From positions 4,445-68,444 of the forward strand of contig SBGQ01000068.1 of NCBI GenBank assembly GCA_006226965.1: a stretch of 64,000 nt of DNA, in the 5' to 3' direction. Source of the DNA: a bacterium (GTDB taxonomy: Bacteria > Bacteroidota > Rhodothermia > Balneolales > M1805). A program made the translations under genes and the position numbers. Positions 7,881 through 52,719 of this stretch are shown here, in pieces; the stretch's first letter is position 1, and each line of letters starts with the position of its first letter. The notes below the pieces were generated by a model. That model was not told where the DNA came from. It worked only from the letters and a program-made list of their open reading frames with translations, and ran no database searches.

Positions 7881-8509
7881 TGTTATTGAGATTGACGCTC
7901 ACTGTAAGCGTAAATTAAATAGTAAAAATATGTATAGAACCCAATATTGAGTTATAATATCATAGATAGTAGAGGATACTATCTAATCGCCCAACTTTAC
8001 CTAGCGATGATAAAATCAGTTCAAACGTAAATAAGATGTGCTCAGACTTAGCCGAGCTAAGCTACAATTTTCATATTCATATATTGATTGGCGCAAGGAT
8101 ACGACAAACTATTTATACAGCGCAACATAAAATTGATGAATTGTTTAAATGTTGACAATTCTGTGTATTCATACAGAATGATTAGTCCATGTAATTTTTG
8201 TTGTTTAATGAATCAGTTGGATTTGAATATCGCACATCATAGTAATTATAAGATTCATGATGTATTGATTACTTTTTCTAGTCACTATTGGCATATAATG
8301 GCGAATTTTTATTCAAGTATAATGTCTTATAATGATGTTATTTATCAAAATCTGGTAGAATTGTTAAAGGGGTGATGATGGTTGAGGTTCATAATAAGAC
8401 TCTTAAAATCAGGTTGGATGATTTAACGTATATGAGTTTTCGTTCTCTGAAATAAAAAAAAGCAACGTGAATTTCAGAAAACTGCAAGTGTTAATTATGC
8501 TAAAAAGAA

Positions 8510-8542: not shown

Positions 8543-9286
8543 TTAATCATCATCGTCGTCGTCATCATCATCATCATCGTTTTTTTTGTTTGCCGACGAT
8601 TCAGATTTAGCCTTTTTTGTTTGTTCTATTTTGGGGCCTTCATGCTCATTTTCTTCTATTGGAGCAAAATTGAAGGCATACCAGAAAGCTGTTATCGGGA
8701 TGAGTAACCATAAAATGTTGAATACTTTGTGGAATCCGGTTTCGATAGTTGGTTCTGCACTCACATTCTTAGTTCCTGTAAACATAGAAGTAATGGTTCC
8801 ATCAGTTGGATGTACAAAACGATCAACAACCAGTCCAATTAAGTGGAATACAACGAGAAATAAAAATACGTGAGAGAAGATTTCATGAACTTCTTCCCAA
8901 AAATGTTCATCATACATTCCCGTTGCTTCAGATTGATATAAGAAATAACCGGATGTGCCGGTAATAACGGCAGATAACAAAATCCCAATCATGGCATAAG
9001 AAGCAAGAGGATTGTGTCCTACATATTCATTTTTACCATTCCACATGGTTTTTAAGTAGGAAATGGCTTTTACCGGCGACAAAGGGAAGTCTTTGAAATG
9101 AGCATATTTGCCTCCAATAAAACCGTAAATGAGTCTCATAAAAGCAATTGACGCAGCCATTGCTCCCATGCCGTAGTGCATATTTTCGTTCAAGTGATTT
9201 TCACCGGATATATAGGCCATTAAAAATCCTATTGCCAATAACCAGTGCGATATCCTAATGGTAAGATTCCAAACGTTAGTTTTCAT
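8543..9286 (-). CDS. Cytochrome b561 / Ni-Fe-hydrogenase b-type cytochrome family membrane protein with a C-terminal poly-Asp tail
   Basis: 247 aa. The N-terminus WNLTIRISHWLLAIGFLMAYISG and conserved His residues in TM helices (HW.., HNPLASY, HVFLFLVVFH) fit the PF01292-type fold. An extra C-terminal TM helix is followed by KKNDDDDDDDDDDD. Confidence 0.7.
   Translation of the reverse strand: MKTNVWNLTIRISHWLLAIGFLMAYISGENHLNENMHYGMGAMAASIAFMRLIYGFIGGKYAHFKDFPLSPVKAISYLKTMWNGKNEYVGHNPLASYAMIGILLSAVITGTSGYFLYQSEATGMYDEHFWEEVHEIFSHVFLFLVVFHLIGLVVDRFVHPTDGTITSMFTGTKNVSAEPTIETGFHKVFNILWLLIPITAFWYAFNFAPIEENEHEGPKIEQTKKAKSESSANKKNDDDDDDDDDDD
8546..8578 (-). repeat. (GAT/GAC)x11 trinucleotide tract encoding Asp11 at the C-terminus
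   Basis: The plus strand reads ATCATCATCGTCGTCGTCATCATCATCATCATC immediately before the stop codon. Confidence 0.9.
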
Positions 9287-11410: not shown

Positions 11411-13333
11411 TTAGCCGGTAATTAAGGTATTTAATTGTGCAACGTGTTCAATTAACAAATCAACTTCTGTAACAATTTCAAAAGATGTAGCCGATAATTC
11501 TTCAGCAGAAGCAGCATTTGATTGAATAGTTTGTTCGTTTTCTTGAACACCTCTTGAAATAGAATCAGTGGTTTGCATCTGCTCATTAGTGATATCTTTT
11601 AATTCGTTAATAAGCAGATTTAGTTTGTCAGTTTCTAGATTTATTTGCTTAAAACGAACTTCATAGTCGGCTAGTTTTATTTCACCTTCTTTAGCAATAG
11701 CCATTGAATTAGAAATGATTGTTTCGGTTTGTTTCGCCGCTTGAGTTGCGCGTAATGCTAAACTTCTAACTTCATCTGCAACCACAGCGAAACCTGCGCC
11801 AGCTTCACCGGCACGAGCTGCTTCAACAGCTGCATTTAATGCTAATAAATTAGTTTGAAAGGCAATTTCATCTATACTTTTTAGAATGGATTGCGATTCT
11901 TGAGCACCATTTTGCATTAAATTAAACGTTTGTTTTAATTCGCTTAATTTTTGAAAACCTGCCATAGCTGCGTCATGTAGATTATTCGAAATGGAATGAG
12001 CAGTAATTACAGATGCTGCATTTCTTTTAGAACCACTCGCAATTTCCTGTATTCGTAAAGAAATGGTATCTGCGGAAGAGGCCTGCTGAGCTGAGCTTGA
12101 AGCTAATTCTTCAGAGTTTTGTGATAATTGATAGGCAATAGTAGAGAATTGACTTATTGATGTATCAAATGATGTAACAGTGTCTCGTATTGGTGTTTCT
12201 ATAGATTGTACAACCCAATATGCTAATATTGGAATAATGATAATTATAATTCCACCGATAAGGAAAAAAAAGGAAATCATGGAATTTAGATTTGCCATCA
12301 TTTCGTCATAAGTGATTGTTGTAAGAATAATCCAGTTTATTCCTGGTAATGAAATAGAATCGAATGCAGATAAATATCTTTGGTTGTCGTTATCTGAATA
12401 AACTAATTCGCCGGTTTGTTGTGTTTGTGCAGTTTTAAAAATAATAGAGTTGGCAATATTCGATTTTAGTCTGTTTTTGAAGCTGTTTTCAACAGTTAGG
12501 TTTTTATCTAAAAAGCTATTTGAACGCAAAAAAGCATCGTTTCCTATGAGTATAGATTCCTCTGTAACACCTTGACCCGCGCGATTGTTCATGACAGTGT
12601 TGATTTTATTTAGAGGCATTTGATAAGCTAAAACGCCAATGCGTTTATTGTTATAAAAAACAGGAGAGGCGATAAAGGAAGCCGGTTGTCCGTTCGAAGG
12701 TTCATACGGCTTATAGTCAACCATTACCGATTCACCTTGTAAAGCCGAATTTGCTTTTTGGAATGCCGTAGCCAACCCAGAATTAGAGAATTGACCATCT
12801 AAAAAATTTGTTGCATAATCTGTTTCTTTAAAAACAGAGTACACTAGATTTCCATCTATATCAAATAGAAAGATATCGTAATACTCAAATAACTGTTGTC
12901 TGGCTAAGAAAAAGGGGTGGTATTTAGCATGATTGGTATTATATAAACTGTTGTCATTCGATGAAATAAGAAGTTGTTTTTCACCAATTGGATAGGGGTT
13001 ATTTTTTATATAGGTTGTCTGTAAATAGTGAGATACATTTTCTTTTTTATCTATAAAATCCCAAGCAGATTTAAAGTCTAATATGGCATTAATTGTCGTT
13101 TTATTGCTTGCAAGTGTTATTATATGTTTATCTATGGTATTGAAATAAGTAATTATCTGGTCTTTTTTTATTTGATTGAACGCTTGAAGTGTATTATAGG
13201 CTGAAGATATGATTTCAGTTTTTAGTTTTACAAAAATAATACTTAGAACGATTACCATTGGTATTAAGACAATGGAACTCGCAAAAGTAAATAATCTTGC
13301 TTTTAGGCTTAATGATTTCGTAGTTAAATTCAT
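11411..13333 (-). CDS. Methyl-accepting chemotaxis protein with a periplasmic Cache-like sensor
   Basis: 640 aa with two TM segments flanking a sensor of about 300 aa. The conserved signalling hairpin is [38 protein letters not shown]. Confidence 0.85.
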
Positions 13334-13435: not shown

Positions 13436-14815
13436 CTAGTTCATAGAAACTATTGTGTTTAAAACACTTAAAGTTTCTTTTAAATGTTTAACTTGGCTTC
13501 TTAAATCCAATGAAACAGTATTAGTTTGTTCTGCTAATGCCGAGTTTTTCAGGGTTGTGTTTTCAATGTCCTGAATAGCATTTTTGAGTTCAAAAGCATT
13601 GGTACTTATAAAACTGAGTTCACTTTTGGTTTGAATAATACTTTTAGTTGCATCCTCAGAATCTGCGGCAACTTCGCTTAACTCGTTAAAGAAACTTTCA
13701 CTTTCATCTAAAATTTGTTTTGTACGTTTTGTTGTAAGTTCAAGTGAATCATTTGAGTTTTTTGCAGCAACTGATGTTTGAGTTGCTAATCTTCGAACTT
13801 CGTCAGCAACAACAGAGAAACCGGAACCTGCTGTTCCTGCTCTTGCGGCTTCAACTGAAGCATTGATAGATAAAATGTTCGTTTGAAAGGAGATAGCATC
13901 AATTTGTTTGGTTACATCTAAACTTTTATGAACAAAATGAGATATTTCTTGGAGTGATCTTCTCAGCATATCAACATTATCTGCTAATACCAATAAGGTG
14001 TCTTTGGTTTGAATCGTTTTATCATTTGATTCCTGAATTTCTTGAAAAGTTTTATCCAAAGTATTCGATAGTTCTATTAAAGATGCACTCATTTGTTGGA
14101 TATTTGCAGCCTGTCTTTGTGTTGATTCAGTTAAATCAAAACTACCTTTAGAAAGTTCACGACTATTTTTGTCTAACTCAAAAGAAATATCATTTATTTG
14201 AGAAATCATATGTTTAAAAAACACTTTAAACGGTCTGTAAAAGCTCGCATAGGTAATCGCAATTATGATGAGTACAAATACTGGAATCATATATTTGGCA
14301 AGTCCAAATAACATTAAAATTGCTCCCGACTTAACAGATAAAGCGTGGTTAAGAGCATAATTAGTGTCATAAAGCGCTGTTTTTGAAATCTTTAAAGCAG
14401 AATTATGAACATTCGATTCCTCATTTCGTAATTGTACTTTCAATTTATGTAGCTCATTTATTGAAGTTGAAACTTCTGCATTGATTTTCTGGGACTTTAA
14501 TTCATCGTTTTCGGTAATGAATTCATGTATATGTTTAAAATCTGAGATTAAACTGTCTAATAATTCTTGTTGAATTCGAATAAGATTTTGATTTTGTTGA
14601 TCTTGAATTAAAGAGTATTCGAATTGGTGAAAGCGTATTGTAGCATTATTTAGGACTGTATAATGAGAGTCTTGGTTCTTAATTACCGAACTCCCATAAA
14701 TGATGATAAGAAGAGTTGTAAAAGCAGCTATGCTAACAGCAGAAATAATTAATTTATAGGATAGACCTACATTGATTTTATTAGTTAAACGGGGTTGATT
14801 TTCCATAAAAGACAC
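13436..14815 (-). CDS. Methyl-accepting chemotaxis protein
   Basis: 459 aa with two TM segments. Signalling domain: [37 protein letters not shown]. Confidence 0.8.
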
Positions 14816-14970
14816 ACGAAAAAAAAATGTTACAATAATCGAAGTTCAAGTGTTGAGCGCTATTATTGTTAATCAAAAATATTAGTATAACTAATTGCCT
14901 ACAAGGTGTTTACGCAAATGTAACTGCATTCAATACTAACGATTTTATAGACTAGGTAAATTAAAATCGT

Positions 14971-17940: not shown

Positions 17941-18203
17941 CTTAAGTAATCAAATAAGCTAAATAGACACTAACATGTTTATAATAAACATATTAAGAAG
18001 TTAAATAAAGAGATGGGACGCAAAGGTTAATAAACTGTGCAAAAAAATTGCACAAAATGCAGCGGATATAAGTCTAAGTAAAATAAAAAGCTATCTCATA
18101 AATGATAGTTCATGTAGTACAACAACTTCTGTCGATTGGGTAAATCTATAATTATTGTTATAAAATTTTAATCTCAATAAAAACTAACGATTATAATATA
18201 GTG

Positions 18204-18902: not shown

Positions 18903-19012
18903 GCTTGGGAATATAGAAAAAAGAGTATTTTTGTTGACCATTTCAAAAGGTTTTTTCTAAGCAAATCTAAGCTTTGAATCATCTGCATAATCTTTAGTTT
19001 TATTTCTTTTAT

Positions 19013-22017: not shown

Positions 22018-22512
22018 ATGCTCATACGTTTTGCTCACCAGTCAGACTTACATCAAATAGACGCCATTTACAATCAGGCAATTCTTGCCGGTGAGCTAAC
22101 CGCTGATTTAAAACCTTGGTCACCGGAAAAACGCTTGCTCTGGTTTGGGGAACATCCTTCCGAAACACATCCGATTTTCGTTGCTTTGGAGGATGATTCC
22201 ATTGCCGGATTTTTATCCGTAAGTCCATATCGAAAAGGACGTGAAGCTCTCAGCAAAACAGTTGAAATCAGTTATTATGTGGATTCAACCCATCGTAGTA
22301 AAGGTATCGCATCGAAACTCTTAGAAGAAGCCGAAACTTTCTGTAAGGCAAAGGCTTACAAAAATATCTTTGCCATTATACTTGAGAGCAATTCGCCCAG
22401 TATTCAACTTTTAAAAAAGTTTGGTTATCAGCAATGGGGGCATTTACCCAATGTGGCTGAATTCAAGGGAAAAGAAGTCGGTCAAGTCTATTTTGGGAAA
22501 CGAATCCTTTAA
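22018..22512 (+). CDS. GNAT family N-acetyltransferase (phosphinothricin-acetyltransferase-like)
   Basis: 164 aa. N-terminal block IYNQAILAGELTADLKPWS...W. Acetyl-CoA motif HRSKGIASKLLEEAE. Confidence 0.8.
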   Translation: MLIRFAHQSDLHQIDAIYNQAILAGELTADLKPWSPEKRLLWFGEHPSETHPIFVALEDDSIAGFLSVSPYRKGREALSKTVEISYYVDSTHRSKGIASKLLEEAETFCKAKAYKNIFAIILESNSPSIQLLKKFGYQQWGHLPNVAEFKGKEVGQVYFGKRIL

Positions 22513-24509: not shown

Positions 24510-24550
24510 TTTTTGTCTTACCCTTGCAATTCTGCGCGTGGGAAGCACAG

Positions 24551-24622
24551 ACCAAGTATAGATTTGCTTCAATACACATGTATTCAAGTGATACTCAGAT
24601 TGTGTTTTGCGCTACAAGTATG
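24551..24622 (-). repeat. Degenerate single copy of the dispersed hairpin element (locus D)
   Basis: ACCAAGTA...GCTTCAATACACATGTATTCAAGTGATACTCAGATTGTGTTTTGCGCTACAAG aligns by eye at about 65-70% to the 39311 and 28141 copies. Shared parts are the ACCAAGT start, the CAGATT box and a weakened hairpin. Confidence 0.4.
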
Positions 24623-26436: not shown

Positions 26437-26553
26437 GCCTCAAAAATAGAAATAAACTCTAATCGGTTCTGGGGAAATCGAAAAACCTCAACAGATGCAA
26501 GAAAAATAATCTACATACTAAAACAGTTTCTGATGGCTAAGCAAGGAAACGCA

Positions 26554-28020: not shown

Positions 28021-28140
28021 GATATTTGGCGTGTAATTTTACGGTTCAAGACAATAAACAGGAGTAAATCGTTCCTTAAAACGAATTTGTTTTATTGTGA
28101 TGCCATTGAAAAATTGAATGTAGGAAGTAGATACAAATCA

Positions 28141-28325
28141 TAAATACGCCTAGCTAAACACATACTCATGAGATTCCCAGATTGCGGTTTTCACCGCAAT
28201 GACTTGAAAAGTAGGTCTTGCCGTTGAAAAACAGTATCTAAGAAACAACAACCAAGTTTTTAATGGATACGTTTCATTTATATGTACTCAGGCTTGCACC
28301 GCATCAACGGAGAAATTGCATCAAA
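28141..28325 (-). repeat. Dispersed hairpin element, one good and one degenerate tandem copy (locus A)
   Basis: Copy 1 (28141-28203) reads AAATACGCCTAGCTAAACACATACTCATGAGATTCCCAGATTGCGGTTTTCACCGCAATGAC. Copy 2 (28251-28325) starts ACCAAGTTTTTAATGGATACGTTTCATTTATATGTACTCAGG. The spacing is about 123 bp. Confidence 0.7.
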
Positions 28326-30027: not shown

Positions 30028-30191
30028 TTCAGGTTTTTTAAGATTCAGCCAAAAATAGAGATTTTGTTAGATTGATAGTTCTGAATTATTACTAAAAATA
30101 ATTCGTGTACAATAACATGTATTTAAAAGTGAATTAAGCAGATACGATATCACAGATATTTGTAAAAGTGAAAATGCCACAAAATGTCATT

Positions 30192-30574: not shown

Positions 30575-33500
30575 ATGAAATTTACAAGAAACTTTACCAA
30601 AGCAGAGTGGAAAACCCCGTACGATGGGCTCCGCTTCGAAACCCGTAAATCAGAAATCAAAAACCCTGACGGTTCTCGTGTATTCTTTTTAGATAACGTA
30701 ATTATCCCTGATTCTTGGTCACAAGTTGCTACTGATATTATTGCACAAAAGTATTTCAGAAAAGCAGGCGTTCCTGCTAAACTCAAATCTGTATCAGAAA
30801 AAGGTGTACCAAAATGGTTGCAGGCAAAAGAAGCTGATACCAAAGCATTAGGTGAATTACCGGAAAAAGAACGATTCTCAGGTGAACATGATTCCCGCCA
30901 GGTATTTAGCCGTTTAGCAGGCAACTGGACGTATTGGGGATGGAAATACGGTTATTTTGATACAGAAGACGATGCAAAAATCTTCTATGATGAAATGTGT
31001 TATATGCTCGCTACACAAATGGCAGCACCAAACTCTCCGCAATGGTTTAATACAGGATTAAACTGGGCTTACGGCATTAACGGCCCGGCTCAAGGTCACT
31101 ATTACGTTGACGGAAAAACAGGAGAGTTGAAGAAATCGGAGGATGCATACACACATCCTCAACCTCACGCTTGTTTTATTCAGGGTATTTCTGATGACCT
31201 CGTGAACGAAGGCGGTATCATGGATTTATGGGTTAGAGAAGCCCGCTTGTTCAAATATGGCTCCGGAACAGGTACAAACTTCTCCGACATTCGTGGTGCA
31301 GAAGAACCGTTAAGCGGCGGCGGACGTTCATCCGGTTTAATGAGTTTCTTAAAAATCGGTGATCGTGCAGCGGGTGCTATTAAATCCGGCGGTACAACTC
31401 GCCGCGCTGCTAAAATGGTTACCCTCGATTTAGACCACCCTGATATTGAAGAGTATATCAACTGGAAAGTTAAAGAAGAGCAAAAAGTTGCGGCTTTAGT
31501 GGCCGGCTCAAAAACCACTGAAAAACATCTCAAAAAAATCATTTCACTTTGCCACACTCCGGTAAACGTTGAAGGGCAGATGTTGAACGGTGCTGTATCT
31601 CGCGATCCGCTTAAAAACAAAGATTTAGCAAAAGCTATCCGCAAAGCTCGTGTTGAAAACGTTCCTGCTAACTACATTGAGCGTGTTATTCAATTGGCAT
31701 CACAAGGTGTTAAAGACATCGAATTCGAAATTTATGATACCGACTGGAATTCCGAAGCATATGCAACGGTTAGCGGTCAGAATTCGAACAACTCAGTTCG
31801 TGTGCCCAATGCGTTTATGCAAGCTGTTAAAGAAAACGGCGATTGGAATCTCTACTGGCGTATCGAAAAGAAAAAAGCTGAGTTAGAAGGTCGCGCACCA
31901 AAGGCATCAAAAACATTAAAAGCACAAGAATTGTGGGATCAGATTGCGTATGCAGCTTGGGCTTCTGCCGATCCGGGAACTCAATATCACGATACCATCA
32001 ACGAATGGCATACTTGTCCGGCTGACGGCCCGATTAAAGCTTCGAATCCGTGTTCTGAATACATGTTCTTAGACAACACCGCTTGTAACTTAGCTTCATT
32101 AAACCTTATTAAGTTTTATGATACCAAAGCGGCTCAGTTTAAAGTTGCTGATTACCAATATGCCACTCGTTTGTGGACAGTAGTACTCGAAATTTCTGTA
32201 TTGATGGCACAGTTCCCGTCAAAAGAAATCGCTGAGTTGTCTTACAAATTCCGCACTCTCGGCCTTGGTTTTGCAAACATCGGTACTTTATTGATGGTGC
32301 AGGGTATTGCTTACGACTCTCCTGAGGCTCGTGCGATTACAGGTGCACTTACTTCTATCATGCACATGACATCCTATGCAACAAGTGCTGAAATGGCAAA
32401 AGAATTAGGCACGTTCCCGGGATTTGAGAAAAACCGTGACCACATGTTACGTGTTATTCGCAACCACAGAAGAGCAGCCTACAACGTTCCTAACGATCAA
32501 TACGAAGGATTAACTGTAAAACCTGTTGGTATCGACCCAAATTACTGTCCAAGTTATCTCTTAGAAGCTGCACGCGCTGATTCTGACCGTGCTCTTGAAA
32601 TGGGTGAGCAATACGGATATCGTAACGCTCAGGTAACGGTTATTGCACCGACAGGAACTATCGGACTTGTAATGGATTGTGATACAACCGGTATCGAACC
32701 TGATTTTGCATTGGTGAAATTCAAAAAATTAGCAGGTGGCGGTTACTTCAAAATCATCAACCAAAGTGTTCCACACGCTTTAAAGAGATTAGGTTATTCT
32801 GATAAAGAAGCTGATGCGATTGTGAAATACGCAAAAGGTTACGGTTCTTTGATTGGTGCTCCGGCTGTAACTCACGAACAATTACGTGAAAAAGGATTCA
32901 CAAACAAAGAAATCGAAGCCTTAGAACAAGCCTTACCAACGGCATTTGATATCAAATTTGCGTTTAACCAATGGACATTAGGCGAAGATTTCTGCAAAAA
33001 TGTTCTTGGAATTAAAGACGAGCAATTAGCTGACTACACCTTCGATATGCTTTCTTTCTTAGGTTTCAGTAAAACTGATGTGGAAAAAGCGAACGATTAT
33101 GTTTGCGGAACCATGACGGTTGAAGGCGCTCCATACTTAAAAGAAGAGCATTTACCGGTATTTGATTGCGCGAATAAGTGCGGAAAAATCGGAACACGTT
33201 TTATCTCTCCTGAAGGTCATATTTTGATGATGGCAGCATCTCAGCCATTTATCTCAGGTGCGATTTCAAAAACGATTAACTTACCAAACGAAGCTACTAT
33301 CGAAGACATTAAACATGCGTATATGTTGTCTTGGGAAGTAGGTACAAAAGCAAACGCTTTATATCGCGACGGTTCTAAATTATCTCAGCCTTTAAACACG
33401 ATGGCTGATGTAATGGAAGAAATCATGCACGATGATGAAGAAGAACAAGTTCAGATTCAAAAAGCGCAAGACCATGTGGTTCAAACCGCTGAACGTATTA

Positions 33501-34192
33501 TTCACAAATATGTAGCTCATCGTAAACGCCTTCCGAACAGAAGAGGCGGTTATACTCAGAAATCAAAAATTGGCGGACAAAGTGTCTATCTGAGAACAGG
33601 TGAGTACGAAAACGGTCAGATTGGTGAAATCTTTATTGATATGCACCGTGAAGGCGCTGCGTTCAGAAGCTTGATGAACTGTTTTGCGATTGCCATTTCT
33701 TTAGGTTTACAGCATGGCGTACCTCTCGAAGAGTTTGTTGATGCGTTTGTATTTACAAAATTTGAGCCATCGGGACCTGTGTTTGGTAATCCGCACATCA
33801 AAATGAGTACATCAATTATTGATTATGTATTCCGTGAGTTAGCCGTTACCTATTTGGGTCGCCACGATTTAGCTCATGTTGATGCGGATATGATTGAAAC
33901 CAGAACCTTGCGTCCGGAGCCGGCTTGCGAAGTTGAAGGAGTTGAACATCAACACATGATTGAAAAAACTCATACTCCTGTTGCAACTGCTCCTGCTCCT
34001 GTAAAAGTAGCAGAAGAACACGTTCACGCAACAGCTACGGTAAGCGTCGGCAAAACTGAAACCGCTTATGAAAAAGCAAAACAACTCGGTTATACCGGCG
34101 ATGTGTGCAGCGATTGCGGTAGCATGACGATGGTTCGTAACGGTACTTGTTTAAAATGTATCACTTGCGGCAGCACTAGCGGCTGTTCGTAA
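30575..34192 (+). CDS. nrdJ: Class II adenosylcobalamin-dependent ribonucleotide reductase
   Basis: 1205 aa. Active-site block [22 protein letters not shown]. Other blocks: [10 protein letters not shown] and [25 protein letters not shown]-terminal Cys-rich tail: [27 protein letters not shown]. Confidence 0.92.
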
Positions 34193-34220: not shown

Positions 34221-34254
34221 AAGCCCGTTGGAGAAATCCGGCGGGCTTTTTTTG
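34221..34254 (+). terminator. Rho-independent terminator of nrdJ
   Basis: AAGCCCG-ttggagaaatccgg-CGGGCTT, followed by TTTTTTT. Confidence 0.7.
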
Positions 34255-34265
34255 ATCTTATGATA

Positions 34266-34620
34266 AAAAACACACGTCATATCACTTCGTAGTACTGCGT
34301 ATCACTTCGTAGCACCTGCGGTGTCTGCGAAAGCAGGTATCTGGGAATAGTTTATAAACGAATGCAGCAGAGCGTACTTTTTAATTAATCAAGAAACAAA
34401 AACACTCGTCATATCACTCCGTAGTACTACGTATCACTTCGTAGCACCTGCGGTGTCTGCGAAAGCAGGTATCTGGGAATAGTATACAAACGAATGCAGC
34501 AGAGCGTACTTTTTAATTAATCAAGAAACAAAAACACGTGTCATACCTGCGAAAGCAGGTATCTGGGAATGGTTTACAAACGAATACAGCAGAGCGTACT
34601 TTTAATCATTCAGGAAAAAA
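34266..34620 (+). repeat. Tandem array of 3 units of the dispersed hairpin element, 132-bp period (locus B)
   Basis: The marker GTCAT recurs at 34276, 34408 and 34540. Units 1 and 2 are near-identical. Unit 3 is about 40 bp shorter internally. The GAAA-loop hairpins are at 34325-34336, 34457-34468 and 34545-34560. Confidence 0.92.
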
Positions 34621-34640
34621 AATTATATTCATACAAAAAA

Positions 34641-34901
34641 ATGTCCTACATCGATTTAGCCCGACACATGCTTCGAGACAACAAGAACTTAAAGGACAAA
34701 GTTCGTTTCAGACATTATTCTAAGGACATCATTACAGACGATACCAAACTCAATCCCGATAAAGGGCTCAACCGAAGGGTTCCCAAAGAACACAAATTCA
34801 GTATTAGAGCCGTTCGGTATAATCTTCGATTGCTCATCATTATAACACTATTTCTGTTGATTACAGCGCTCATAGTCTGGGTTGTTAATGGAAAAGTGTA
34901 A
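34641..34901 (+). CDS. Small basic protein with a single C-terminal TM helix (hypothetical)
   Basis: The ATG at 34641 gives 86 aa, MSYIDLARHML...LRLLIIITLFLLITALIVWVV. The longer ORF-track start at 34569 would lie inside the repeat array and is unlikely. Confidence 0.4.
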   Translation: MSYIDLARHMLRDNKNLKDKVRFRHYSKDIITDDTKLNPDKGLNRRVPKEHKFSIRAVRYNLRLLIIITLFLLITALIVWVVNGKV

Positions 34902-35247
34902 ATCTAAAACATTGTGAATCAATTTAATCAAGTAGTTTCCTAAGAGTTTGAGTTTCCCGAATTTCGGATTATTGGTTGTAGCACAAAAATCAGATTCGTG
35001 ATTTTCATGGCAAACACTTTACATCACTACGTATTACCATGGGTAACATGGCAAACTATATTGTCACATAATGAAAGGGAAATCAAAACAACTGTAACTA
35101 TTCACTATCATGTAACCTCTTGCACACCTTATCGTTTAGCGCGATTCAAAAGAAATTCATAATCATTAAATGTTTACTTTACATAGGTTTTTAGGGTTAT
35201 AATCTTACTGAATTACCGATTTTAGGAGTAAATCAATTTGTTAATAC

Positions 35248-37041
35248 ATGCTCGTTTCTAATTTGAACACTACTGAAGCCGCATCCATTGCAGTTCTGCC
35301 TTTCGTAAATATGAGTCCGGACCCGGAGAATGAATATTTCTCTGATGGAATGACCGAAGAAATTATTAATGCACTCACCACTATAAACGGTTTAAAAGTA
35401 ATTGCCAGAACCTCAGCGTTTGCGTATAAAGGTCTGAATTATGATATCCGTAAGATTGGTTCAGATTTAGGAGTTCAGTCGGTTTTAGAAGGAAGTATCA
35501 GAAAATCGTCGAATCGGGTTCGAGTTACCGCACAGTTGATTAATGCAACGGACGGTACCCATTATTGGAGTCGTAATTTTGACAGAGAATTGATTGATAT
35601 TTTTGAACTTCAGGATGAAATAAGTGTCTTAATTGCTGATCAGATTCGCGAAAATTTCGGGCATATCGAGTATGAAAATCATCTGGTTAAACAATCAACT
35701 TCTGATATTTCAGCCTATGAGTTGTTTTTAAAAGGGCGTTATCATCAATTAAAATGGAATCCTGATTCTTTTCACGAAGCCATACGTTATTATACAAAAG
35801 CAACCGAAGCTGATCCCAAATTTGCCCGTGCCTATTACGGAAATATGCAATGTTACGGCTTGCTTGCCATGTGGGGTTATATTGACCAACAAACCGGCAT
35901 TGAACGATCAGTCGATAATTTCCGAATTGCGCAAGACTTAGATAAACAATTGCCGGAATATCACATGTCATTTGTAGGCCGTTATTTTTGGGGTGAATGG
36001 AATTACGAACTCGGTTATCAACATTTAAAATTAAACATCGAACAGTTTCCGAATTACACGGAAGCCTTACAAGCTTTAGCTGAATTGGCTCTGGCAAACG
36101 AAGCGTTTGAATTAGCAGAAGAATACATTACCAAAGCCTTACATATCGATCCCTTATCAGCGAATGATTGGTACACTTTAGCCCTTATAATGTATCACAA
36201 AGAAGATTACGTAAAATCACTGGAATGCAATCGAAAAGCCTTAGATATTAATCGGGAATTACTATTGGGAATTCATCTTAATGCATTGTGCTATTTGCAG
36301 TTACACGATGAGATTAAGTTTAAGGAATGTATTTCCGGTTTACCTGATGAAGAAAACATTCAACTACTGTATTCTGTATTTCATAAGGAAAAAGAAATTG
36401 AAACGGAAACGGTTAAAAACTGGACAGAAGCAGCCGAAGTCTATCAGCAATTAATTCCATATGAACTTTATATTTTGGCTAATTCTAAGCATGAAAACGA
36501 AGCCATTCAACTTTTAAACCACTACATAGCCCAACGTCGCGGACAATTGCTTTACTTTAAAACCGAACCGTTATTGAAACCGTTATGGAATCTGGTTTCG
36601 AAACATGATTTATATCCGTCTAATTGGACTCCTCCGGAAACCAGTGGTTTATTTTCGACTTCATCAAAAACCAAAGTATCAATCAGCGATGAAGAGTTGG
36701 AGCAAACATTTACACGTTTAGTAGCTTTCATGCAAGATAACTCACCTTATTTGGATGCTTCGTTGAGTTTAGTTTCATTAGCAAATCAGCTTGATATCCA
36801 TCCGAACCGACTTTCTTATATCATAAACGAACGTGCTGAGGCAAATTTTAACGAATTTGTGAATCGTTATCGTTTAGAAGTATTCAAAGAGAGAGCATTG
36901 CAGCCTGAGTTTGCCCATTTGTCAATTATGGGATTAGCGCTTGAAAGTGGTTTTAATTCGAAATCTTCTTTTAATGATTTCTTTCGCAAACAAACCGGAC
37001 TCACCCCAAGAGAGTGGATAAAAGCCGCAAAACAAAGATAA
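35248..37041 (+). CDS. AraC-family transcriptional regulator with an N-terminal TolB-N-like module and a central TPR region
   Basis: 597 aa. N-terminus: IAVLPFVNMSPDPENEYFSDGMTEEIINALTTINGLKVIARTS. TPR-like repeats fill the middle. C-terminal AraC HTH: LANQLDIHPNRLSYIINE...GFNSKSSFNDFFRKQTGLTPREW. Confidence 0.75.
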   Translation: MLVSNLNTTEAASIAVLPFVNMSPDPENEYFSDGMTEEIINALTTINGLKVIARTSAFAYKGLNYDIRKIGSDLGVQSVLEGSIRKSSNRVRVTAQLINATDGTHYWSRNFDRELIDIFELQDEISVLIADQIRENFGHIEYENHLVKQSTSDISAYELFLKGRYHQLKWNPDSFHEAIRYYTKATEADPKFARAYYGNMQCYGLLAMWGYIDQQTGIERSVDNFRIAQDLDKQLPEYHMSFVGRYFWGEWNYELGYQHLKLNIEQFPNYTEALQALAELALANEAFELAEEYITKALHIDPLSANDWYTLALIMYHKEDYVKSLECNRKALDINRELLLGIHLNALCYLQLHDEIKFKECISGLPDEENIQLLYSVFHKEKEIETETVKNWTEAAEVYQQLIPYELYILANSKHENEAIQLLNHYIAQRRGQLLYFKTEPLLKPLWNLVSKHDLYPSNWTPPETSGLFSTSSKTKVSISDEELEQTFTRLVAFMQDNSPYLDASLSLVSLANQLDIHPNRLSYIINERAEANFNEFVNRYRLEVFKERALQPEFAHLSIMGLALESGFNSKSSFNDFFRKQTGLTPREWIKAAKQR

Positions 37042-37131
37042 GGTTCGAATTTTCATAAAGAAGTCCGGAATTCACTATTACGGACGTTCGTAAGAGGGCA
37101 GTTGCTGAACTTAGGTCCGAACGAATAATTC

Positions 37132-37200
37132 ATCCCAAACCTTGAGGGATTTGAAGTGAGAATTTGGGTTTCTATCCCAAACCTGGACATCGTTTTGGGG
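37132..37200 (+). promoter_or_regulatory. Four CCCAAA/TTTGGG segments able to form mutually exclusive hairpins in the leader of the 37291 operon
   Basis: ATCCCAAACC at 37132 and 37174; TTTGGG at 37163 and 37194. Pairings 1:2, 2:3 and 3:4 are all possible. Confidence 0.3.
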
Positions 37201-37290
37201 TCCAAGTCTTACTTTATTATCCTTGTTTTGTGTGTGAAATAGGAGTTCATCAAAATCAACCTAAAAAACACAATTTATAACACCTTTTTT

Positions 37291-37956
37291 ATGAAAACTT
37301 CTATTGCATTCATCGTTATCATGAGCCTGTTCAGCTTACAAGTAAATGCTCAAACATCTGAAATTGATTCATTAAAACAAGAGATTCAAACCTTAAAAAC
37401 ACAGTTAGCGCCCATTAACAGTTTATCAAATTCTGATTTAAGAGATTGGGGCAGAGGCTGGTACACATTAGGAACGAGTGGAGCTACTTATCAATTCGGT
37501 TTAGAATTGGGATATATGTGGAAAGCGTATGATGATAAAGACCAGCCTGAATCAGATAATATAATCGGTAAAAACAATGCCTATCGTTATGGTATTTCTT
37601 TTGGAGCTGATTATTTTCTGAATGAAAACGTCTGGAAAAACGGTTCTTTAATCGATTCAGACGGCTATATGTTCTATTCTAAATTGAATGCGGCTTCACC
37701 TTTGTACTTAAACATACTTTCCTTTGCCGGACATCTAAAGTTTGCTTATGCTAAAGCATTTACCAATAACAAACACGGATTCGACGATGCCCGTTTTGTA
37801 TTTGGTTACGGATTTGATGTAGAATTCCGTACATCACAAAAAGAACAAATTACCATAGGTTTCACAGATGCCAGCGACTCCTTTTTCAGCAACAGAAAAG
37901 ACACCATTTTCCCGCAAAAAGTTAGATTCGTATTTGGTTTCAAACGATTCTTTTAA
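37291..37956 (+). CDS. Hypothetical outer-membrane beta-barrel-like protein
   Basis: 221 aa. Signal peptide ...SLQVNAQ, a short coiled segment, then Gly/Tyr/Phe-rich alternating strands ending FGFKRFF. Confidence 0.5.
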   Translation: MKTSIAFIVIMSLFSLQVNAQTSEIDSLKQEIQTLKTQLAPINSLSNSDLRDWGRGWYTLGTSGATYQFGLELGYMWKAYDDKDQPESDNIIGKNNAYRYGISFGADYFLNENVWKNGSLIDSDGYMFYSKLNAASPLYLNILSFAGHLKFAYAKAFTNNKHGFDDARFVFGYGFDVEFRTSQKEQITIGFTDASDSFFSNRKDTIFPQKVRFVFGFKRFF

Positions 37957-37975
37957 ACATTAATCTGATGGATTC

Positions 37976-38836
37976 ATGAAAAAAGCATTTACACTATTTA
38001 TGTGTGCATTTAGTCTCACAAGTGTTTTAAAAGGCCAAACACAAAGTGTAAAAGTGGGTGATGAGCTTCGGCGATTCACCCTTTTTGCTCCTAAGTCTAT
38101 TTCAAAAGAAAAGCCTAGTTCATTAGTCATAAACTTTCATGGTACGGGCATGACCGCGTTAGAGCATATGTTTTATACTGAAATGAATAAAACGGCTTCC
38201 AAAAATTCGTTCATTATCGTTTATCCGCAGGGGAAAAATAATGATTGGAATGTCGGTCTTGGGCAAGAATATTACGAAGGAACGGATGTCGCATTCATAG
38301 ATTCGTTAGTAAAAAAGATCAAAAAAGAATACACAATTACACAAGTGTATGGTATTGGTTTTTCTAGAGGCGGTTTTTTTGTACAACGATTGGTTGCCGA
38401 ATTCCCTGATTTATTTACTGCAGTTGCTAGTATTTCTGCACCGATTACAAATAAAGCTGCACAGCAGATGCCTAAGACAGTGAACGTAGGCTTTATGTTG
38501 GTTCAAGGAGACCAAGATAAAGCTGTTCTGCATACCGGAATACAAGGAGCTTATTATTCTGATGAAGCATGTATTCAGTTTTGGCTGGATAGAAACAATC
38601 TCGGTATGAATTACAAAGAAACTGTGTACGATAAAAAATACGATGGCACTAAAATCATACGAAAGTCATATGTAGGCTCACCAAAAATCGAATGGCTTGC
38701 TATTGAGAACGGCGGACATACTTGGCCCGGTTCTGATGATTTTAATGTCGGATTTAACCTAGGAAAAACCACCCATCAATTAAATTTTAATCAAACGGTT
38801 TGGGATTTCTTTTCAAAGCAAAGGAGAACAAAATGA
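37976..38836 (+). CDS. PHB-depolymerase-family (LpqC-like) secreted esterase, alpha/beta hydrolase
   Basis: 286 aa with a signal peptide. Blocks: LVINFHGTG, nucleophile elbow GFSRGG, and GGHTWPG near the C-terminus. Confidence 0.7.
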   Translation: MKKAFTLFMCAFSLTSVLKGQTQSVKVGDELRRFTLFAPKSISKEKPSSLVINFHGTGMTALEHMFYTEMNKTASKNSFIIVYPQGKNNDWNVGLGQEYYEGTDVAFIDSLVKKIKKEYTITQVYGIGFSRGGFFVQRLVAEFPDLFTAVASISAPITNKAAQQMPKTVNVGFMLVQGDQDKAVLHTGIQGAYYSDEACIQFWLDRNNLGMNYKETVYDKKYDGTKIIRKSYVGSPKIEWLAIENGGHTWPGSDDFNVGFNLGKTTHQLNFNQTVWDFFSKQRRTK

Positions 38837-39234
38837 ATGTTAATATGGATAAAAAATCGAAATCGCGCGTAATTCAGTTGTTGATTGCCTTAATCCTCAT
38901 AATGGTTTTTCATGGGAGTATTTTATTTGGATTGATTCCTTTTGAATACACTTGGGGCGGACGACTAAAAAGTATCGAAGAAATGTACGTATTTGAGTCT
39001 GTCTCAATAGCTGTAAATCTCTATTTAGGTTTAATCTTATTGATTCGTGGAGCGTATGCAAAGCCAATTATTTCTTTGAAATTTGTTAAGGTGAGTCTTT
39101 GGATTTTTGCTGGTTTATTTTTGCTGAATACATTCGGCAATGTGTTGGCTGAAACCTGGCAAGAACAACTTTTTGCAGGCGTAACTTTGTGGATGTCGTT
39201 TTTAACGTGGAGATTGGCAGCTAAGCAAGACTGA
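38833..39234 (+). CDS. Small integral membrane protein (4 TM), hypothetical
   Basis: The ATG at 38833 is preceded by AAGGAG (38821-38826) and overlaps the esterase stop. Four hydrophobic helices are predicted. Confidence 0.5.
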   Translation: MNVNMDKKSKSRVIQLLIALILIMVFHGSILFGLIPFEYTWGGRLKSIEEMYVFESVSIAVNLYLGLILLIRGAYAKPIISLKFVKVSLWIFAGLFLLNTFGNVLAETWQEQLFAGVTLWMSFLTWRLAAKQD

Positions 39235-39310
39235 ATTAAAACTCTAAGAATAGGGGGTTAGTGTTATGTGTGATACTGTGCAAAACGGTATCTAGTAAGG
39301 TAATTTGGCT

Positions 39311-39493
39311 ACCAAGTTAAAAAATACGCTTAGCTAAATATGTGTTTTAAGAGCTGCCTAGATTACTGCTTTCGCAGTAATGAAAAAAAATCCCGAATTA
39401 AAACGGCATCTTATGATTAACAATCAAGTTAAAAAATACGCTTCGCTAAATATGTGTTTTGAGAGCTGCCTAGATTACTGCTTTCGCAGTAAT
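39311..39493 (-). repeat. Two tandem units of the dispersed hairpin element, 112-bp period (locus C)
   Basis: (AC)CAAGTTAAAAAATACGCTTAGCTAAATATGTGTTTTAAGAGCTGCCTAGATTACTGCTTTCGCAGTAATGA occurs twice with 2 substitutions. The hairpins TTACTGC-TTTC-GCAGTAA are at 39363-39380 and 39475-39492. Confidence 0.88.
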
Positions 39494-39526
39494 GAAAAAA
39501 AAATCCCGTTTTCCTACGGGATTTAA
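39494..39526 (-). terminator. Rho-independent terminator (minus strand), about 120 bp after the DUF5916-like gene
   Basis: AAATCCCG-ttttccta-CGGGATTT. On the minus strand it is followed by a run of 9-10 T. Confidence 0.65.
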
Positions 39527-39643
39527 GAACAAAAGACAACTTTGCTAGATAAATGTCCGGCTATGCCCATATAACAGTTTTCACTTAGTAGAAATTTGTA
39601 TTGCTACAAAGACCAGATATCAAAATGAAGGTTTTAAAAACTA

Positions 39644-52576: not shown

Positions 52577-52719
52577 AAGTGGGCAGCAAATATACACTAT
52601 TAAGGGAACCTATGTAAAGTGTTTTTTGTATAAAATCTCAATTAAAATTTTATAGTATAACTTGCAAAACGGCAAGTATTCGTTTAAAATCTGATTAACC
52701 CTAAATTAAAGGAAACAAT

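Follow-up and report, generated by a model that had tools for sequence, protein, structure and literature searches.

Repeats of the repetitive extragenic palindromic (REP) type have been studied mainly in Proteobacteria, and classical REP families comprise tens to thousands of near-identical copies. A class of CGTC-tagged REPs was described by Di Nocera, De Gregorio and Rocco in 2013 (PMC3733652); according to the text of that description, the tag is unpaired and often reads TGTC or CCTC, the stem has 8-9 bp and almost always opens with complementary A-T residues at positions one and two, the loop has 4 nt in family 1 and otherwise 5 nt, and three unpaired nucleotides, mostly CCA, follow the stem as a tail. 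The same text reports tens to thousands of units per genome, mostly as tags-outside (head-head) dimers with conserved spacers of 20-100 bp, head-to-tail arrays being rated negligible; the units sit mostly between co-directional or convergent open reading frames (ORFs), near the 3' end of the upstream ORF and with no associated transposase, in Proteobacteria, Chlorobi, Bacteroidetes (Gramella forsetii), Spirochaetes and Thermotogae, and family 1 includes Neisseria dRS3 and Rickettsia RPE-6 (PMC3733652). The 20-bp dRS3 palindromes (ATTCCC-N8-GGGAAT), with RS units of 50-150 bp between them, form arrays known as Neisseria intergenic mosaic elements (NIMEs), which were reported in 2007 as unseen outside Neisseria (PMC1797815). 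Here we describe a tandem array of hairpin-bearing units behind nrdJ, with related units at further intergenic sites, in a 64-kb chromosome segment of an uncultured, Balneolales-like bacterium (approximately 37% G+C; the whole stretch analysed, hereafter the window). The array is most likely a fairly ordinary feature of the REP/BIME kind (BIME, bacterial interspersed mosaic element) and not a new class of RNA. We consider it probable that the units are lineage-specific REP-type palindromic intergenic repeats, forming small BIME- or NIME-like clusters in the 3' flanks of genes and closest to CGTC family 1; this family is named as the closest because the units agree with it in the 8-bp stem with A-T and T-A as opening pairs, in loop length (4 nt), in location behind genes and, for four of seven copies, in the tag. 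An earlier examination of the letters of the window (the sequence-only reading) had matched the array to no named family, a statement that can be revised, as the module has the geometry diagnostic of family 1 in the published text.

The module was defined from an alignment of seven sequences: units A1, A2 and A3 of the array behind nrdJ (locus A), B1 and B2 at locus B, C2 at locus C (Table 1), and one unit behind nrdJ of a different species, in contig L053 (Logan SRR20140227). Their consensus is NGTC - AT N6 - 4-nt loop - N6 AT - CTR GG.A - approximately 20 nt - AG(C)nnnGCGTA. The core is a 20-bp palindrome, AT-N6-(4-nt loop)-N6-AT, preceded by an unpaired tag (CGTC in A1, A2 and L053, TGTC in A3, AGTC in C2, TTTC in B1 and B2), of which TC is invariant among the direct copies, and followed by CTR, the three nucleotides after the stem being CTG, CTA or CTC and never CCA; 3' of the core extends a structure-free tail of approximately 50 nt, ATCTRGG-N20-AGCnnnGCGTA. 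We found that the 8-bp stem is paired in 56 of 56 cells across the seven sequences and that seven of its eight pairs show double-sided changes, a result equalled by none of 500 shuffles and approached by no slid register, and RNAalifold, unaided, returned this one helix and no other. The hairpin has been kept by compensatory changes, and the observation of the sequence-only reading that the stem differs between loci yet stays complementary applies to all seven sequences. The first two stem pairs are A-T and T-A in A3, B1, B2 and C2, G-T and T-A in A1 and A2, and A-T and C-G in L053; the loop is GAAA in six copies and TAAG in L053, and TCAT and ATCT flank the hairpin in six of the seven, with TCAC and GTCT in their place in L053.

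At locus A, three head-to-tail units occupy 34266-34622, behind nrdJ (30575-34192), a class II ribonucleotide reductase gene by Pfam with its nearest named relatives in Balneolales. Tandem Repeats Finder reported a period of 132 (2.1 copies, 95% matches, 34266-34545) and a period-90 row at 34457-34622 corresponding to the shortened third unit, and a second repeat search agreed; the three 132-bp-type units behind the nrdJ terminator were thus borne out, as were the GTCAT marker starting at 34276, 34408 and 34540 and the palindrome-bearing direct repeat, since TATCACTTCGTAG was found four times across units 1 and 2. The shortfall of unit 3, given as about 40 bp, amounts to 42 nt, made up of a block of 33 nt and the 9-nt GTGTCTGCG, and the perfect hairpin said to follow from this loss, ATACCTGC-GAAA-GCAGGTAT, is present at 34543-34562; the remaining quoted positions and motifs also proved correct. 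Unit A3 has the canonical layout of TGTC tag, this 20-bp palindrome, CTG, and the tail ATCTGGGAAT-N17-AGCAGAGCGTAC. Judged by their sequences, A1 and A2 are derived forms, because insertions interrupt the palindrome module and part the tag from the stem, which survives through three G-T pairs; in A1 the insertions measure 33 nt (34281-34313, TATCACTTCGTAG twice) and 9 nt (34321-34329), and the three wobbles lie in the stem of the residual hairpin at 34321-34340. As A1 and A2 are derived forms, the idea that this array is the founder of the family found no support. The supposedly conserved second palindrome differs even inside the array (GTTTATAAAC, GTATACAAAC, GTTTACAAAC) and, without a loop, cannot fold as a hairpin, and for these reasons we treat it as chance; the T-run is not conserved either, being missing from the L053 copy. 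The 33-nt insertion specific to A1 and A2 (34281-34313 and 34413-34445) has a 20-nt internal direct repeat, with TATCACTTCGTAGYACYTGCG twice, and its A2 copy holds a perfect 12-bp palindrome, CGTAGTACTACG; a 13-mer of this insertion has no further exact copy in the window, and its two matches with two mismatches (39579 and 61022) are at chance level.

The relation between the loci was tested non-circularly, by single-sequence nhmmer queries against the window. Query B2 (39300-39412, minus strand) found C2 at E 3.7e-4 and A3 at E 9e-4, and query C2 found locus B at E 3.6e-3, all matches lying on the strand originally given. In addition, a pattern derived from the copies matched six times against none expected in the window (a circular test), and a covariance model trained on the six good copies gave these 79-93 bits and the rest of the window at most 17 bits. 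Units inside one array are 95-97% identical; between loci, blastn matches are only 10-17 nt long and nhmmer E values are about 1e-3. The reported recurrence of the core at three other loci holds for 39311-39493 and for the C2 part of 28141-28325, but the upstream half of the latter is decayed and 24551-24622 is only marginal. Specifically, unit C1 has lost its 3' arm and the ATCTGGG box and is detected by no model, and candidate D goes undetected by the covariance model. All good copies are downstream of a gene and on the strand of that gene, in agreement with the sequence-only reading; the genes on either side are co-directional at loci A and C, convergent at B and D, and divergent at none. 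The family can be called dispersed in that it occupies three or four intergenic sites, but all of these are inside 15 kb. Such confinement (24.5-39.6 kb), with several copies decayed, with none in the other approximately 49 kb of the window or in the 9.6 kb upstream of it and with none found in other genomes by strict patterns, would also suit a purely local duplication, in which one intergenic segment was copied by illegitimate recombination within its 15-kb neighbourhood and is decaying, having neither mobility nor function. However, the loci are strongly diverged and yet all eight stem pairs are kept by compensatory changes, for which selection or repeated templating is needed; a homologous copy lies behind nrdJ of a different species (L053); and, as a hint only, the L053 contig and the Logan contig of the window break at element sites, as multi-copy repeats would. 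A purely local duplication seems to us very improbable.

Besides the direct copies, we found modules in inverted orientation, by means of a 33-nt module covariance model built from direct copies only and 128 kb of searched sequence. Three inverted modules are among the top four sub-threshold matches and fall within two intergenic regions that make up approximately 1% of the window; a possible further one, between B1 and B2, was recognised by eye, is detected by no model and, read on the minus strand, gives a weak hairpin followed by T8. The spacers at B and C have AACTTGR-N-AGATRCYGTTTT in common (three matches against none expected), and their small hairpins, on the opposite strand, have the layout tag-AT-N6-loop-N6-AT-CTA, as in the direct module. 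Because inverted module matches adjoin direct copies at both loci, B and C would be arrays of alternately oriented palindromes, with a long conserved spacer where the tags are outside and a short variable spacer where they are inside; locus A has head-to-tail units and no inverted partner. Modules are thus present in both orientations, and units have been amplified in tandem and have then decayed. The inverted modules at B and C could pass for the terminal repeats of a miniature inverted-repeat transposable element (MITE), but the target-site duplication of a MITE is missing, as direct repeats border none of the units, and locus A is without a second end. The idea that a dimer forms one hairpin, as in REPINs (REP doublets forming hairpins), was not supported by single-strand folding, in which the 111-131-nt dimers fold as two separate small hairpins (z-scores -1.1 to -2.1).

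Element sites are filled or empty among relatives, and all lie behind genes. In L053, where nrdJ is 90% identical and the synteny of nrdJ with the peptidyl-prolyl isomerase (PPIase) gene is retained, the element lies 40 nt behind nrdJ, on the nrdJ strand, and reads CGTC-ACCCTGAC-TAAG-GTCAGGGT-CTCGGAAC-N18-AGAGCAGCGTAG; with CTC after the stem and AGAGCAGCGTAG at the right spacing, its architecture is that of the window, and its stem and loop are different. This copy scored only 15 bits with a model built without L053, and its position, strand and every box agree. The site is empty in L035 (nrdJ 93%), which has the terminator only, and no element was found in L036 and L038 (nrdJ 85-86%). The spacer between the PPIase gene and hutH measures 65 bp in L054 versus 315 bp in the window, and neither L035 nor L054 has a counterpart of the DUF5916 protein. 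Logan short-read contigs end inside unit A1 (34311) and in the intergenic region 17941-18203 (at approximately 18172), and the two ends of the L053 contig fall 136 nt past nrdJ and 9 nt past the PPIase gene, two places with elements in the window; breaks at element sites are as expected of multi-copy repeats, although we take them as a hint only. The inverted modules at two loci, the arrays differing in unit number and the empty orthologous sites all favour a REP/BIME-like DNA element, which the sequence-only reading had named as its second choice after a structured RNA.

That first choice, a structured or small RNA, was right about the covarying hairpin, which is real, but the hairpin is the sole helix and has neither a promoter box, nor a conserved terminator, nor an Rfam match to go with it. 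Units that were small RNA (sRNA) genes or 3'-untranslated-region-derived sRNAs would present a 5' GNRA-capped hairpin and a single-stranded region (ATCUGGGAAU ... AGCnnnGCGUA) to targets or to a protein, and the tandem copies would be multicopy sRNA genes. The covarying stem, the GAAA loop at three independent loci, the retention of the A1/A2 stem through G-U pairs, which is possible on the sense strand only, the co-orientation of all good copies with the upstream gene and the tail boxes conserved without structure, like a seed region, are all consistent with this proposal, as is the lack of a terminator between the upstream gene and the element in L053 and at locus C. On the other hand, the only gathering-level Rfam match in the window was a tRNA-Leu, and permissive Rfam scans of loci A, B and C gave at best 24 bits against thresholds of 40-90, so that the comparison with Rfam that had been proposed yielded no family. 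The host uses promoters of the TAnnTTTG type (the Bacteroidota -7 box), because this box directly precedes tRNA-Leu(CAA) and several minus-strand genes in the window, but no unit is preceded by one. The units do not end in a conserved terminator hairpin, the L053 copy is without a T-run and has a loop, TAAG, that is not GNRA, arrays A and B lie past strong intrinsic terminators, and the gene-proximal copies C1 and B0 are decaying; moreover, an sRNA gene does not predict a hairpin module on the opposite strand beside the direct copies. Taken together, we regard sRNA genes as distinctly unlikely. Further readings of the unit were tried and rejected: box 2 (GCGTAYTTTTT) as a Bacteroidota -7 box, and box 1 with box 2 as an extracytoplasmic function (ECF) or sigma-54 promoter, for misfits in spacing and key bases and for the missing T-run in L053; the conserved hairpin as a terminator, as no T-run follows it; and small ORFs across the arrays, as these are not conserved between loci.

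REPs and BIMEs of Escherichia coli have been shown to act as 3'-end barriers and partial terminators of mRNA. The units may likewise be cis-acting RNA elements at 3' ends, blocking 3'-to-5' exonucleases on the upstream mRNA or partly terminating its transcription. This proposal is compatible with REP-type repeats; the one difference is that selection would act on a function of the RNA. Every locus lies behind a gene and on its strand, and the terminator of the DUF5916 gene is itself a module-shaped hairpin followed by T9; judged by sequence comparison, this terminator is homologous to the B1/B2 spacer hairpin and may be a co-opted module. In L036 (nrdJ identity 86%), the nrdJ terminator at 13625-13665 (plus strand) reads AAAAAGTC-AT-TCTTGT-GAAA-ACGAGA-AT-GACTTTTT, which is the module geometry, GTC-AT-N6-GAAA-N6-AT-GAC, extended into a bidirectional terminator (module model 19 bits, E 0.015), and may point to a connection of these palindromes with terminators. 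However, most units at A and B lie past an efficient-looking terminator, where little transcript is expected; the hairpin alone (8 bp, no T-run) would be a weak terminator; and a stabilising role leaves the conserved 50-nt tail unexplained. That the selected function lies at the RNA level is, in our view, unlikely.

For repeats of the REP type, the functional module would be the 20-bp palindrome flanked by an unpaired NGTC tag and, at its other end, by CTR, and the conserved tail of approximately 50 nt would be the spacer of a tags-outside (head-head) dimer, of which the partner is still recognisable at B and C; at locus A, only the REP and the spacer would have been amplified, head to tail. 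New intergenic sites may have been reached through a trans-acting enzyme recognising the folded single-stranded palindrome and the tag, possibly a Y1/HUH transposase of the REP-associated tyrosine transposase (RAYT) type or an IS110-type recombinase encoded outside the window, and unequal recombination or replication slippage may add units to the arrays and remove them. Modules that are part of a transcript, such as those following the PPIase and DUF5916 genes, could serve as 3' stem-loops or terminators. The search for a RAYT or Y1-transposase gene suggested by the sequence-only reading was negative for the 64-kb window: Pfam scans found no Y1_Tnp, IS110, reverse transcriptase (RT) or integrase among its ORFs of at least 100 aa (ORF 22018-22512 by precomputed domains only). 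A group IIC intron remnant, an attC site, IS200/IS605 ends, IS91 ends, Ter sites and iterons were also considered, and each was rejected because something that defines it is missing, be it a domain V-like bulged helix, long imperfect dyads, end hairpins on the same strand or consistency of orientation.

Table 1. Repeat units, inverted modules, terminators and promoter boxes located in the window
Feature	Position	Strand	Description
nrdJ intrinsic terminator	34221-34255	+	12-bp stem (34221-34248) and T-run; precedes array A, outside the repeat; terminator scan
Unit A1	34266-34397	+	132 nt; CGTC tag 34275-34278; hairpin 34321-34340, then tail; module covariance model 24.4 bits
Unit A2	34398-34529	+	132 nt; 95-96% identical to A1, same insertions; hairpin 34453-34472
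Unit A3	34530-34622	+	Canonical short form, ~90 nt; whole-unit covariance model 91.5 bits, module model 45 bits
Unit B1	39415-39504	-	TTTC tag, ATTACTGC-GAAA-GCAGTAAT at 39474-39493, CTA, tail; 91.8 bits
Unit B2	39303-39392	-	97% identical to B1; palindrome 39362-39381; 93 bits
Candidate decayed unit B0	39520-39601	-	3' untranslated stretch of DUF5916 gene; nhmmer E 0.006; 16.6 bits, E 0.36
DUF5916 gene terminator	39501-39524	-	9-bp stem, T9; AT-N6-loop-N6-AT geometry; terminator scan
Unit C2	28125-28212	-	AGTC tag, ATTGCGGT-GAAA-ACCGCAAT at 28181-28200, CTG, tail; 78.7 bits, module model 44.7 bits
Decayed unit C1	28246-28310	-	Keeps TGCGGTG (5' arm) and tail end AAACTTGG; by alignment and eye
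Candidate decayed unit D	24546-24622	-	Downstream of SPL-like gene; nhmmer E 0.017 from C2, 0.25 from family profile
Inverted module, tag GGTC	28213-28245	+	Tag-to-tag with C2; 16.2 bits, E 0.06; best non-training match in window
Inverted decayed module after C2 tail	28095-28127	+	13.7 bits, E 0.3; tags-outside dimer with C2, ~111 bp
Inverted decayed module after B2	39268-39299	+	TGTG-ATACTGT-GCAAA-ACGGTAT-CTA; 11.6 bits, E 1.3; tags-outside dimer with B2, ~119 bp
Possible inverted module between B1 and B2	39391-39415	+	AT-CCCGAA-TTAA-AACGGC-AT-CTT; by eye; shares AGATRCYGTTTT with other spacers
TAnnTTTG boxes	52587-52594, 30050-30057, 26441-26448, 18962-18969, 14915-14922, 14874-14881, 8022-8029	-	

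Several observations weigh against an assignment to REP-type repeats close to CGTC family 1. Only six good copies at three loci, all inside 15 kb, were found in the approximately 74 kb of the source genome that was read (the window and Logan contig L056), each inverted module, taken by itself, is marginal (E 0.06 to 1.3; 11.6-16.2 bits), and no transposase is encoded in the window. The exact CGTC tag is present in only three of seven copies, the 3-nt tail is CTR and not the CCA that is usual according to the text on CGTC-tagged REPs, and the head-to-tail array at locus A is of a kind rated there as rare or negligible; furthermore, the stem sequence differs at every locus, unlike the near-identical copies of classical REP families. 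Searches of 185,579 species-representative (GTDB) genomes, among which the source genome is not included, and of JGI metagenomes with strict patterns recovered no copy, although these patterns would also miss the L053 variant. For example, the pattern ATCTRGG-N19-22-AGCNRRGCGTAYTTWT gave 33 singleton matches in the genomes, from unrelated taxa, and the two inspected were coding sequence; the JGI metagenome scan gave eight matches, none confirmed by the covariance model, and two scans of viral collections and one plasmid blastn search returned nothing relevant.

A 4.6-kb block of five plus-strand genes (34642-39234) is bracketed by arrays A (plus) and B (minus) in inverted orientation. The AraC/TPR regulator of this block (35248-37041) has no relative above 54% identity and no close orthologue in a homologue search, its best matches being in Bacteroidia (Draconibacterium, Prolixibacteraceae), unlike those of nrdJ (Balneolales); the block may have been acquired horizontally, and the bracketed pattern would fit array-mediated gene exchange. 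The spacer ATCTRGG-N20-AGCnnnGCGTA is kept across loci and species together with a hairpin conserved in structure only. It is a long shot that the repeats are more than selfish DNA, the information-rich spacer, kept with the structure-only hairpin, being the recognition site of a dedicated recombinase or a functional RNA, and the arrays being NIME-like ones outside Neisseria that mark neighbouring gene blocks and promote their exchange. We know of no mobilising enzyme for the CGTC class; if the assignment is true, a CGTC-like family in a Balneolales-like lineage would offer a second, distant system in which to find one, and the conserved spacer, the compensatory stem changes and the filled and empty orthologous sites would allow a test of whether local gene exchange is promoted by such arrays. 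In annotations, the array should not be entered as a new RNA gene, and it would account for short-read assemblies breaking behind nrdJ, for which the contig breaks are a hint only. Elsewhere in the window, an (ATC)11 tract (8546-8578) at the 3' end of a minus-strand cytochrome b561-like ORF (8543-9286) would encode a poly-Asp C-terminus and is slippage-prone, and two adjacent paralogues of chemoreceptor (MCP) genes have a 120-nt stretch in common (11756-11875 and 13784-13903, 72% identity), inside the first of which contig L056 ends.

When the repeats are compared with known systems, those of Streptococcus pneumoniae BOX (boxA-boxB(n)-boxC) are similarly modular, non-coding and intergenic, with one module tandemly amplified in variable number, and no mobilising enzyme is known for either; however, there is no correspondence in sequence or modules, and the entire BOX element folds into long RNA structures, while the conserved structure here is limited to a 20-nt hairpin. 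The REP/BIMEs of E. coli and the REPINs of Pseudomonas share with our repeats a palindromic unit with a conserved unpaired tetranucleotide, alternating orientation in clusters, a location in the 3' flanks of genes, tandem amplification, and vertical persistence with presence or absence among relatives. Unlike in the GTAG-tagged REPs and REPINs mobilised by RAYTs, the tag here is not GTAG (a GTAG in the A1/A2 insertion is not beside the conserved hairpin), each palindrome of a dimer folds on its own and the window has no RAYT gene; and, unlike in E. coli, no linker motif for integration host factor (IHF) or gyrase was recognised. NIMEs are arrays of up to dozens of units with more than 100 spacer families, compared with two or three units and one spacer family here, and belong to another host phylum, and the dRS3-targeting phage recombinase and the antigenic or allelic exchange of NIMEs have no known counterpart in our repeats. 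Both, however, consist of 20-bp palindromes alternating with repeat units of 50-130 bp, intergenic and behind genes, with G+C-richer palindromes, A+T-rich spacers and a number of units at one position that varies between relatives. The closest match is CGTC family 1, compared here through the published text. The spacer of our repeats (ATCTRGG-N20-AGCnnnGCGTA) is unusually information-rich, and CGTC or the accepted variant TGTC is found in four of seven copies, the other two tags, AGTC and TTTC, being confined to two loci. A 3-nt stretch follows the stem as in family 1 but has another sequence, and tags-outside dimers with a homologous spacer would be present at B2 (119 bp) and C2 (111 bp), where the inverted partners are weak (11.6-16.2 bits). 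Shared with family 1 as so described are the 8-bp stem opening with A-T and T-A, the 4-nt loop, the location near the 3' end of the upstream gene, with neighbouring genes co-directional or convergent, and the lack of a transposase gene nearby.

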